A stretch of DNA of 63,056 nt, the filler included, from Anaerolineae bacterium (GTDB taxonomy: Bacteria; Chloroflexota; Anaerolineae; B4-G1; DUEL01), in NCBI GenBank assembly GCA_041082215.1. It is 15 parts of 15 records of this genome, joined end to end, with 100 filler letters (N's around TTAATTAATTAA, not from the genome) between each part and the next. Parts side by side here need not be neighbours in the genome. Positions count along the whole stretch, not along the records: positions 27,633 to 29,151 come from JBDOIF010000155.1; 14 more parts are not named here. One strand, 5' to 3'. Below the pieces are notes generated by a model that saw nothing but the letters and a program-made list of their open reading frames with translations, had not been told where the DNA came from and ran no database searches. This document shows positions 24,665-29,252 of the stretch, piece after piece. The position numbers were made by a program, and so were the translations under genes. How positions within the stretch are numbered: position 1 is the stretch's first letter; each line of letters opens with the position of its first letter.

Positions 24665-24677
24665 CCAGACCACAGTT

Positions 24678-24716
24678 GAGGAGGCAGGGGTGCAGATCAC
24701 TGCACCCCTCCTCCTC
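24678..24716. other. 17-bp stem-loop
   Basis: GAGGAGG(c)AGGGGTGCAG-atca-CTGCACCCCTCCTCCTC, no U-tract. Confidence 0.6.
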
Positions 24717-24748: not shown

Positions 24749-24825
24749 ATACCCCCGACAGGGGGGACAAAACGCCCCCCATCGGGGGTATTTTTGTCCT
24801 CCCTGCCTTCAGGAGGACGGAAATG
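24749..24825 (+). promoter_or_regulatory. Putative two-state translational switch upstream of radC
   Basis: Hairpin 24749-24791 plus anti-SD 24792-24802 pairing with SD 24812-24822, versus alternative helix 24759-24772/24792-24805. Confidence 0.55.
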
Positions 24826-27532: not shown

Positions 27533-27888
27533 NNNNNNNNNNNNNNNNNNNNNNNNNNNNNNNNNNNNNNNNNNNNTTAATTAATTAANNNNNNNNNNNN
27601 NNNNNNNNNNNNNNNNNNNNNNNNNNNNNNNNCATCCAGGCTCTGTTTGACAACAACCGCATTTATTCTGGTTTTTGACCCCCATTCTCACTGCCGGCGT
27701 TATTGCCGGAACGAGAGGCCCCACACCGTGACGCCTCACGTATGACCTGTGACGTAATGGGGCAACGTGATGACAAATCCCAATCCCAGGGAGGTGATGC
27801 TATTACAACTGAACAAAGCCGTGTCCCCGGGCTGACGGGGACGACCGCCGGGCGTAACCCGGCCCAGACACTATAGAGAGAGGTGAAA

Positions 27889-28971
27889 ATGACAGACATG
27901 CAACTGCTCTACGAGGACTACCGGGCAGAAGAACTCCAGTGGCTGCCCACGGCCCTGGAGCGGCTGGGGACCATCATCTGCAACCCCAGCAACCCTATCC
28001 CCGGCCTTCCCTGCCTTCCAGGGGGCCCAATAGACCGGGAATGGGCAAACAACCGACTCCTGGTCAAAACCCCCTGGGGACTTGCAGAACCGTTGTGGGG
28101 AGCCGATACGGATGGCCTCTGGCCCTTCGCTCCCCTCTACCGCCTGGTCATTCCTGACAACACCCCCCTGCCAGAACCGCAAATCCCCCAGACCGGCTAT
28201 GCCGTCTGGGACACCGTTACCGGCCTGGTGACCCTCCACGCCGACGACGGAGGCGAACCGGTGCATCTCCGTCCGACCCTGGACGAAGCGCGAAACGGGT
28301 CACAGATAATGGACTGCATCCGCGCGGACCTGGCCCGGCAGGGAATCCCCATCTTCCCGACCAGGCTTTATCGGCGCGACTCCCTTCCCTATCCCTGGGA
28401 AAATGTGTTCAAGACGGCGCGGGTCAACAACCGGGAGGTGAGCGTCCCCCTGGTCGGCTATGCCCTGGATAGGGGGGAAGTAGTCTACCTCCACATCGTG
28501 GGCAACAAGTCGGCCATCCGCTCCATCTGGGCCACGCTGCACCAGGGAGGCGGCAGGAAGCCGGTCTACATCGAAGGCGAAAGTTTCCTGACCGGCGTCC
28601 CGACCGGCAACTATGTCTCTTACTCCACCCCCGTCCTGGCCGACACCGGGGACTACCGGATGGTCATCCTCGACCGCCGGGCCATCAACGCCGGGGGCGA
28701 GGATGTCGCATACCTGGTGGTCCCCGGGACTCACCTGAAACAGACAGATGACCTGCTGGCCGCATTCGCCCACCGCCTGGACAGCGTGCTCCCTATCCCG
28801 GTGCTCCCGGAGTGGGGAGCAGTGCTGTACCGGAAAGGAGTCGAGCAAAGGCTGATCCGCCATCTGACTTATGGCGGAGATATAGCCGCCGGCCATGCCA
28901 TCGTCAACGACCCGCGATGGATCGAACTGGTGCAGAGCCTGATCCAGTCCGGGGAGATCGAAACCATCTAG
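27889..28971 (+). CDS. Hypothetical mobile-element protein
   Basis: Long ORF with SD GAGGTG; 'YLHIVGNKSAIRSIWATL', 'LPIPVLPEWGAVLY'; precedes the DUF6094-like gene. Confidence 0.7.
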   Translation: MTDMQLLYEDYRAEELQWLPTALERLGTIICNPSNPIPGLPCLPGGPIDREWANNRLLVKTPWGLAEPLWGADTDGLWPFAPLYRLVIPDNTPLPEPQIPQTGYAVWDTVTGLVTLHADDGGEPVHLRPTLDEARNGSQIMDCIRADLARQGIPIFPTRLYRRDSLPYPWENVFKTARVNNREVSVPLVGYALDRGEVVYLHIVGNKSAIRSIWATLHQGGGRKPVYIEGESFLTGVPTGNYVSYSTPVLADTGDYRMVILDRRAINAGGEDVAYLVVPGTHLKQTDDLLAAFAHRLDSVLPIPVLPEWGAVLYRKGVEQRLIRHLTYGGDIAAGHAIVNDPRWIELVQSLIQSGEIETI

Positions 28972-28987
28972 ACAACTCTCAGAAACA

Positions 28988-29071
28988 CCCCGGTGGGGGT
29001 ACGTCTGCTGCCCCCGCCGGGGGCGCATTCTGTACCTCCGCCGGGCCAGACACAGGAGGTACAGAATGCGT
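28988..29071 (+). promoter_or_regulatory. Putative two-state translational switch upstream of the DUF6094-like gene
   Basis: Hairpin 28988-29022 plus perfect 16-bp CGCATTCTGTACCTCC/GGAGGTACAGAATGCG covering SD and ATG, versus alternative helix 28989-29002/29032-29045. Confidence 0.6.
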
Positions 29072-29151
29072 ATCGCAGCCATCGAGAAACTGGGGTACTA
29101 CCCCACCCCACCCCTGGTCACCGACCTGATCGCCCGCTGGCTGACCCTGCC
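29066..29151 (+). CDS. DUF6094-like SAM-dependent methyltransferase, N-terminal fragment
   Basis: MRIAAIEKLGYYPTPPLVTDLIARWL; the GYYPTP motif. Confidence 0.65.
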
Positions 29152-29252
29152 NNNNNNNNNNNNNNNNNNNNNNNNNNNNNNNNNNNNNNNNNNNNTTAAT
29201 TAATTAANNNNNNNNNNNNNNNNNNNNNNNNNNNNNNNNNNNNNNNNNNNNG

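Follow-up and report, generated by a model that had tools for sequence, protein, structure and literature searches.

A conserved four-segment leader with mutually exclusive predicted helices at ribosome sites of Chloroflexota integrative-element genes

Control of translation by competing mRNA folds is already known and, to our knowledge, nearly all catalogued bacterial examples have a sensor, whether a pocket for a ligand, a leader peptide, antisense RNA or a helix melted by heat. What is new here is a conserved, covarying four-segment leader without a visible sensor that precedes several genes of integrative elements in thermophilic Chloroflexota. We analyzed it in a 63,056-nucleotide stretch of DNA (the window) from the draft genome of an Anaerolineae bacterium (GCA_041082215.1), where it occupies positions 28988–29071 ahead of a DUF6094-type methyltransferase gene.

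Several described systems resemble it in part. Translational riboswitches, such as the thiM thiamine pyrophosphate (TPP) riboswitch, have an expression platform composed of an anti-anti-Shine-Dalgarno (SD) sequence, an anti-SD and the SD. In ermC and cat attenuation, the active state is the pairing of segments 2 and 3, which forms when a ribosome translating a leader peptide stalls over segment 1. Type I toxin mRNAs such as hok/sok contain metastable, refolding structures. For aapA3 of Helicobacter pylori, successive, mutually exclusive hairpins are reported to form around the SD during transcription (PMC6733600). In the maturation (A-protein) leader of MS2-like RNA phages, the SD is paired upstream at equilibrium and a transient hairpin allows only young chains to be translated; the protein dose is low, and the transient and final folds are mutually exclusive and both conserved (PMC4615214). 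Frpo/ssi single-strand promoters in the leading regions of plasmids are reported to act as DNA with −35/−10 boxes in the stem (PMC11541004).

Architecture, covariation and distribution of the leader

The leader comprises four segments; these, the genes on either side and the radC sister leader described below are on the plus strand. A 16-nt A/C-rich, G-poor spacer (28972–28987) separates the upstream stop codon from segment 1 (28988–29002), an SD decoy (anti-anti-SD) assigned from sequence, folding and alignment. Segment 1 consists of a C-run, GG and a G5 run and ends in a short tail repeating the bases 3′ of the true SD; its possible partners are segment 2, segment 3 and segment 1 itself. Segment 2 (29009–29022), the lock, forms 14 bp with segment 1 in the ground state or is self-folded inside the 1:3 hairpin. 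Segment 3 (29023–29045) is the anti-SD, of which 29023–29039 pairs with segment 4 and 29032–29045 pairs with segment 1. Segment 4 (29055–29071) contains the SD, GGAGG (29055–29059), a 6-nt spacer, the ATG start codon (29066–29068) and the next 3 nt, all of which are paired in the ground state.

A preliminary description of this DNA had proposed a 14-bp hairpin at 28988–29022, an adjoining perfect 16-bp hairpin over the ribosome site, a 14-bp alternative pairing and a start 16 nt past the upstream stop, and each of these was recovered. Hairpin 1:2 pairs 28988–29001 with 29009–29022 (14 bp). Directly abutting it, hairpin 3:4 pairs 29023–29039 with 29055–29071 and buries both the GGAGG and the ATG; its 16 Watson-Crick pairs are extended by one G-U pair to 17 bp. 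The alternative helix, 1:3, pairs 28989–29002 with 29032–29045 over 14 bp including two G-U pairs. The upstream TAG lies at 28969–28971, with segment 1 beginning at 28988.

A sister leader (24751–24825; 52.8 bits with the covariance model) lies before radC on contig C71, a separate small contig of the same metagenome-assembled genome (MAG) with a RadC family match. It forms the same three helices from a different sequence, in agreement with the earlier proposal that the two leaders share one switch logic (1:2 plus 3:4 OFF, 1:3 ON). The radC leader has a T-run after segment 2 and a terminator-like site at 24774–24789. Upstream of it is an extra hairpin (24677–24716) with an SD-like 5′ arm (GAGGAGG) and a CCUCC repeat in its 3′ arm, and a GTG-started frame of about 57 codons runs from this hairpin through the whole radC leader. 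The hairpin may be a degenerate leader copy or belong to an upstream open reading frame (ORF).

Chance pairing was examined in three ways. The fold of 28972–29090 had a free energy of −67.0 kcal/mol, compared with −40.4 kcal/mol (standard deviation 3.7) for 200 dinucleotide shuffles, none of which was as stable (z = −7.15); this comparison, which the preliminary description had chosen beforehand as one that could overturn its reading, favors the leader. The 1:3 duplex (−30.4 kcal/mol) was equaled by 14 of 20,000 random 28-nt windows of the same genome paired to segment 1, and that of the radC leader by 148 of 20,000. Finally, the decoy, anti-SD and SD arrangement was sought as exact words throughout the 3.5-Mb genome; of the eight places returned, only this one reads as a plausible leader, the rest being low-complexity sequence.

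We collected 19 copies of the leader, standing ahead of the DUF6094-helicase orthologue in the Thermoflexia MAG G001, in metagenome loci, and ahead of radC and other genes. Across this family, segment 1 opens with a C-run, followed by GG, one variable base, a G5 run and the tail, and its first part has its reverse complement in segment 2. Segment 3 holds the complement of the tail, then CCUCC and then bases again complementary to the start of segment 1; segment 4 runs from GGAGG through the same tail to the start codon. This tail is three bases long in the window leader, six in G001 and seven in the radC leader, and it varies concertedly in segments 1, 3 and 4; likewise, segments 2 and 3 follow the changes at the variable base of segment 1 and its neighbors. 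Spacing between the SD and the start codon is 5–9 nt in 18 of the 19 leaders. The C and G runs are invariant in all 12 aligned leaders because they serve three pairings, such that no single compensating change works; the tail, with two pairings, covaries. An AGACA-type motif is found just 5′ of segment 1 (28969–28986) and in the loop 5′ of the SD (29046–29054). The motif recurs at both places in loci L048, L052, L054 and L055, and G001 has CATTCCAA at both instead. Because the flank motif recurs 5′ of segment 1 and of the SD, the decoy also copies the 5′ flank of the ribosome site.

Covariation was counted on a model-based alignment of 15 copies (14 distinct) that was fitted to 1:2 and 3:4, not to 1:3. 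For 1:2 and 3:4 together, 76.6% of cells were paired and 16 pairs had changed on both sides (score 0.251; best slid control 0.139). The corresponding values for 1:3 were 77.8% of cells and 6 of 14 pairs (score 0.291; best slid control 0.21), and in neither case did any of 500 shuffles score as well; these figures are not clean probabilities because the rows are partly related. Helix 1:2 alone had 85.6% of cells paired, with four pairs changing on both sides. We also compared the duplex energy (RNAduplex) of each leader's own partners with that of partners swapped between leaders. Own partners paired better for 1:2 (−29.2 versus −26.6 kcal/mol; 2 of 10,000 permutations as good), for 1:3 (−27.4 versus −21.4 kcal/mol; none of 10,000) and for 3:4 (−21.2 versus −16.0 kcal/mol; none of 10,000), in a test that near-duplicate rows make conservative. 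Helices 1:3 and 3:4, which exclude each other, both covary. The architecture is conserved with three-way covariation in related elements, and homologues, the other comparison named at the outset, carry the pairings with compensatory changes.

Strand preference was informative as well. In 13 of 14 leaders the sense strand gave the stabler 1:3 helix, and in 13 of 14 the stabler 3:4 helix; for 1:2 the count was 8 of 14. From this we conclude that the ribosome-site helices are read as RNA, or at least as the sense strand, rather than as duplex DNA sites. We consider it very probable that the leader is an RNA-level gate on translation initiation built from the decoy, lock, anti-SD and SD.

The leader belongs to one lineage of elements rather than to the DUF6094 family, as judged from its distribution across the searched sets. 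A DNA search of 61 related genomes identified one real relative, contig C127 of G001, in which the leader and first codons (query positions 1356–1477) are 75% identical (E = 9.8e-15), compared with only 42% for the flanking upstream proteins. Gene order in G001 is a small ORF, radC, a 395-aa homologue of the upstream protein, a 1145-aa DUF6094 plus helicase protein, a HicA-family gene with a small partner, and a tyrosine integrase; the setting is therefore an integrative mobile element. G001 carries two full copies, before radC and before the DUF6094 gene, and a lone 1:2 hairpin before the small ORF. At L047 3831–3896, which is the start of the G001 contig, a 1:2-type hairpin occurs by itself, with no anti-SD segment, and a free SD and a 91-aa ORF come directly after it.

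Ten metagenome loci were recovered in a scan that used the aligned pair of upstream proteins as query. The covariance model placed the leader directly before the DUF6094 gene in eight of them at E ≤ 1e-3; of the other two, L050 has a related long hairpin without an anti-SD (28.1 bits) and L046 ends inside segment 1. Additional copies precede other genes (L048:39, L055:495, L052:122 and L030), and the leader occurs in five more genomes of the class, once before a 1349-aa SNF2-type helicase gene. With the RNA model, 7 of 151 genomes in a class sample had a match, counting the source genome (G000), and in a phylum-wide sample of 151 the source genome alone did; it holds two copies only. Among the upstream regions of 28 more distant DUF6094 genes, the leader was found only in the window and G001, the others having other hairpins. 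The survey of DUF6094 upstream regions suggested earlier thus bore out the pairing pattern in 8 of 10 close metagenome loci and failed to find it in 26 of 28 regions before more distant genes. Two of the latter type, L031 and L032 (G153 and G333), have a strong hairpin between an SD-like word and an anti-SD, with the true SD immediately following. The anti-SD there would be held away from the true SD, apparently a different design on a similar theme.

Searches of other collections were negative. A distant DNA search of a plasmid collection with the whole contig gave no match. Viral contigs yielded none with the upstream protein and none with the strict leader pattern; a loose hairpin 1:2 pattern gave 37 viral stretches scoring at most 30.3 bits, and the three inspected were plain G+C palindromes and not leaders. 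Scanning genome contigs with the G001 protein returned its own record and one unrelated weak match only. An Rfam 15 cmscan at E ≤ 1 of the two window contigs and 20 kb of G001 gave no genuine match, two hits to miRNA and lncRNA models (E = 0.063 and 0.62), both elsewhere in L044, being spurious. Nor do the titles and abstracts returned by literature searches describe the leader. The family is not yet catalogued and is absent from Rfam.

Predicted folding path and rival explanations

Energies were computed with a nearest-neighbor model without pseudoknots, and barriers are direct-path estimates on nested folds. At 37°C the closed state of the window leader lies 15.5 kcal/mol below the best SD-free fold, a margin that shrinks to 11.5 kcal/mol at 60°C; the other leaders have margins of 0.9–16 and 0–9.6 kcal/mol, respectively (13 leaders measured). 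The long 1:3 hairpin is the minimum free energy (MFE) fold, or near it, in L048:39, L055:495, L049 and L050. The near-identical leaders of L060 and L061 (G538 and G500; leader at 1501–1590) differ by a U to C change in the anti-SD (CCUCC versus CCCCC), with which the predicted MFE fold flips from SD-paired to the long 1:3 hairpin. The leader of the L061 type, which precedes the 1349-aa SNF2-type helicase gene, may be a natural ‘ON’ allele.

Predicted folds also changed with chain length. Segments 1 and 2 self-fold in 16 of 16 leaders (−7.8 to −12.2 and −6.2 to −15.1 kcal/mol, respectively), and for a chain ending just before the SD the MFE fold is the 1:3 hairpin with the segment 2 hairpin nested inside it in all 17 leaders examined. 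As the chain grows, the MFE fold passes from the segment 1 self-hairpin to 1:2 (29–36 nt), to 1:3 (46–62 nt) and then to 1:2 plus 3:4 (69–107 nt) in 14 of 16 leaders, the two exceptions staying open. In the window leader these switches fall at 31, 57 and 79 nt (29015, 29041 and 29063). Starting from both self-hairpins, the barrier to 1:3 is 0–3.8 kcal/mol versus 12–21 kcal/mol to 1:2; from 1:2 to 1:3 it is 17–29 kcal/mol in 14 of 16 leaders. Invasion of the segment 1 self-hairpin by segment 2 as the latter emerges, with its first half out, has a barrier of 6.6–13.8 kcal/mol. What the analysis shows is that the helices are present, conserved, covarying and strand-specific, that segments 1 and 2 form self-hairpins, and that the predicted fold depends on chain length. 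The competing barriers suggest two routes within the first tenths of a second, one closed and one open, either of which would be long-lived once taken. The self-folding segments and the predicted nascent preference for 1:3, both missed in the preliminary description, point to a kinetic, co-transcriptional trigger.

We put it at about an even chance that the leader is an aptamer-less, cis-acting translation gate on a mobile-element operon mRNA, OFF at rest and with an ON state reachable co-transcriptionally. As its trigger we tentatively propose kinetic partition during transcription, by the logic of the MS2 maturation gene, with an unknown trans factor coming next. At equilibrium, 1:2 and 3:4 would form and the ribosome site would be buried (OFF). 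During synthesis, segments 1 and 2 would each snap into a small hairpin of their own, and the emerging segment 3 would take segment 1 nearly without a barrier, giving a long 1:3 hairpin that encloses the segment 2 hairpin. The SD would then emerge unpaired (ON) and ribosomes could load on the young transcript; later, or in chains in which 1:2 formed first, the leader would rest closed. The outcome would be a small protein dose tied to transcription, of the methyltransferase-helicase, RadC and a few others. On this account the ON fold would be populated and would decay, and elongation speed, temperature or a factor would set the ON/OFF split.

A more specific version of this mechanism, which we offer as speculation, is that the leaders are self-timing gates: transcripts of the establishment genes (for RadC, the methyltransferase-helicase and a few unknown proteins) would be translatable only while young, the two conserved mini-hairpins funneling the chain into decoy:anti-SD pairing before it is double-locked. 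If this were true, protein output would track bursts of transcription, such as might occur when the element enters a new host, and not the amount of mRNA. Single-base changes would adjust the ON/OFF split separately for each gene, and the leader would be a cellular, DNA-encoded, modular counterpart of a mechanism so far known from RNA phage.

Several points weigh against this kinetic mechanism. The leader is known here from its sequence and computed folds, and the energy model and nested-path barriers are limited as described above. The nested barrier from the open to the closed full-length fold is 18–35 kcal/mol in 14 of 16 leaders and 3–5 kcal/mol in the other two; taken at face value, an ON chain would never close, and a timer would need pseudoknotted intermediates. 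Conversely, the invasion barrier is low enough that chains may go straight to OFF. By its computed margin the window leader lies near the OFF-biased extreme of the 13, where one other leader has 16.0 kcal/mol. The lone 1:2 hairpin with a free SD (L047:3831–3896) implies that hairpin 1:2 may have a job of its own. The covariation sample is small (14 distinct rows) and partly related, and its alignment was fitted to 1:2 and 3:4.

In the nearest competing explanation, the same three-helix switch is thrown by a trans-acting protein or small RNA, from the element or the host, that holds segment 2 (or the self-hairpin of segment 2) or melts 1:2, such that segment 1 captures the anti-SD. We regard this as unlikely, though the best placed of the alternatives. 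The closed-state advantage of 0.9–16 kcal/mol at 37°C (13 leaders) calls for an outside push; within one element, near-identical copies precede several genes, as in a regulon (G001 has two full copies and a partial one); the 1:2 stem is invariant in its sequence as well as in its pairing; and the logic is that of riboswitch expression platforms, in which a ligand decides whether the anti-anti-SD is free. However, no candidate factor was found; the conserved neighbor protein lacks a recognizable RNA-binding family in Pfam, PHROG or the Atlas, and the 1:2 loop is short and variable in sequence and length, with no pocket or conserved loop. The triple pairing duty of the runs also accounts for their invariance.

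It is improbable that there is no switch at all, with 1:2 as an intercistronic terminator or stabilizing hairpin, 3:4 as a static brake and 1:3 as a by-product of diverged segment copies. Segments 2 and 3 do resemble each other, as do 1 and 4; variants L049 and L050 consist of the long hairpin only, the SD being hardly occluded if at all; and there is the case of a 1:2 hairpin standing alone ahead of a free SD. Yet 1:3 itself covaries and extends into the loop of 3:4, where 3:4 has no need of pairing; 1:3 also shows strand-specificity in 13 of 14 leaders and is the nascent-chain MFE fold in 17 of 17. The T-run after segment 2 and the terminator-like score of the radC leader would suit a terminator, but a T-rich tail follows 1:2 in that leader only (1 of 19). 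An intrinsic terminator is not supported for the window leader either, as contig C73, which carries it, has no terminator-like site and only 4 T residues occur in the 10 nt after 1:2.

Translational coupling, in which ribosomes finishing the upstream gene open the leader, had been raised as a possible trigger in the preliminary description and was not borne out; we judge it quite unlikely. The leader is always intercistronic and on the strand of the upstream gene, and the stop codon lies 16–19 nt before segment 1 in 7 of 12 measured leaders. Over all 12 of the 20 leaders with a placeable upstream ORF end, however, this distance ranges from 12 to 92 nt, the anti-SD is in the spacer, outside the upstream ORF, unlike in classic coupled pairs, and no reading frame through the leader is conserved, all of which make coupling unlikely. 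A terminating ribosome covers about 10 nt past the stop codon and so would not reach the hairpin, even at 16 nt. A leader peptide of the ermC type was also rejected, since the decoy motif lies in different frames relative to the start codon between leaders and no peptide is shared.

A DNA-level element (tandem near-palindromic operator boxes for a repressor, a single-stranded DNA transfer hairpin of the Frpo/ssi kind or a small inverted-repeat mobile insert) is hardly credible: a C4-N4-G4 near-palindrome recurs in segments 1, 2 and 3 at intervals of about 23 bp, there are several copies per element, the 5′ flanks of segments 1 and 4 are alike in G001 and weakly so in the window, as in a target duplication, and assembly graphs break inside the leader, but 1:3 and 3:4 show a G-U-dependent strand asymmetry, the SD and start codon lie inside a helix whose sequence tracks each gene's own spacer, a consensus scan found no −35/−10 match inside or before the leader, the flank likeness is absent by reading of the sequences from most other leaders, and the 3.5-Mb genome holds two copies only. 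An insert resembling a miniature inverted-repeat transposable element was rejected on the same flank likeness, seen in only two elements (G001 and, weakly, the window), and on the two copies in the leader's own genome. An RNA thermometer (ROSE or fourU) was rejected as well: 3:4 has 17 bp, and even at 60°C the closed fold keeps an advantage of 11.5 kcal/mol in the window leader and of 0–9.6 kcal/mol in the others.

Genes, contigs and host

The window consists of 15 draft MAG contigs joined end to end; its 28 N-runs of 44 bases form 14 N44-TTAATTAATTAA-N44 linkers (e.g., 29152–29251), so that genes on either side of a linker are not physically linked. Several pieces are fragments of 1–2 kb. The source genome totals 3.53 Mb in 174 contigs and is 96% complete, and the leader lies on its 1519-bp contig C73 (27633–29151).

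The gene directly upstream of the leader (27883–28971, from the ORF list) encodes 362 aa and is 42% identical at the protein level to the 395-aa protein at the equivalent place in G001. The 362-aa protein had no match in Pfam, PHROG or the protein Atlas. Proteins of this kind (360–395 aa; window 27883–28971 and L044 1062–2249) are always encoded directly 5′ of the DUF6094-helicase gene, and weak relatives (24–26% identity) occupy the equivalent place before more distant DUF6094 genes (L013–L017). Only the first 28 codons of the methyltransferase gene (29066–29151) precede the contig end, their product matching the N-terminus of the G001 protein, and the remainder was not found in the binned genome. 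The G001 homologue matches DUF6094 at E = 4.7e-32 over its first 514 aa and at 1.7e-31 as the full 1145-aa protein, and it also has helicase domains.

Between the radC and methyltransferase contigs of the window, contig C72 (25846–27171) carries a 441-aa ORF that weakly matches the integrase core (rve); it is probably part of an insertion sequence, and thereby a cause of the assembly break. A related element has a DnaN-like sliding-clamp gene with two DNA_pol3_beta domains (L048 2790–4019), and an element of the G001 type has a gene for a TadE-like pilus protein (L047 450–866).

The host is likely to be moderately thermophilic, with a mean G+C of 64.8% over its 48 tRNAs and, from a rough proteome index, a growth optimum of about 55°C. 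Eight public runs, all of DNA, contain part of the window, and those with this contig are labeled hot-spring metagenomes. Contigs from four public runs break at 29010 and 29039, inside the leader, and provided no usable paired changes; strain variants among the public-run contigs have short indels at 29002, 29050 and 29064, and assembly graphs treat the leader as a repeat or variable node.

Comparison with known systems

The leader marks a little-known type of element with RadC, an unknown 360-aa protein and a DUF6094-helicase fusion, and its presence suggests that these genes need tight dosing. If the kinetic explanation is true, it would be a compact natural example of folding-path control on a cellular mRNA, in an RNA of about 90 nt, and a useful part for synthetic biology in thermophiles. 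If the static explanation is true, it would simply be an unusually elaborate ribosome-site brake.

Its four segments, paired 1:2 and 3:4 when silent and with the SD in segment 4, are those of ermC and cat; unlike in those leaders, the active state here is 1:3 and there is no conserved leader peptide. In common with Frpo/ssi promoters, it is a repeated intergenic hairpin before early DNA-protecting genes (including methyltransferases) of a mobile element, but here no promoter-like sites were found, the SD and ATG lie in a helix, and 1:3 and 3:4 are better on the sense strand (13 of 14). Like hok/sok and aapA3, it has mutually exclusive, successive SD hairpins, here predicted, on genes whose untimely expression is costly. 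In those mRNAs, however, the nascent SD is closed and is opened later by 3′ processing, whereas here it is predicted to be open first and closed at rest; moreover, unlike for type I toxin mRNAs, we know of no antisense RNA for this leader. The pairing logic is identical to that of a thiM-type platform, in which 1:2 plus 3:4 closes the ribosome site and 1:3 opens it. Unlike the thiM riboswitch, there is no aptamer, and the 1:2 loop is about 7–17 nt and variable in sequence and length across the 15 aligned copies.

Judged on sequence and predicted folds, the leader appears most like that of the MS2 maturation gene. In both, the equilibrium fold, predicted here, pairs the SD with an upstream complement (closed by 0.9–16 kcal/mol at 37°C in our leaders). 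A candidate counterpart of the transient phage hairpin is 1:3, which as the predicted nascent fold would sequester the anti-SD in 17 of 17 leaders and is reachable from the two self-hairpins over 0–3.8 kcal/mol; the direct path to 1:2, however, has a barrier of only 6.6–13.8 kcal/mol. Unlike the phage leader, the one described here belongs to a bacterial mRNA that is DNA-encoded and polycistronic, and copies of it precede several genes; in addition, its decoy has a lock of its own in segment 2, and two small self-hairpins appear to steer the folding path.

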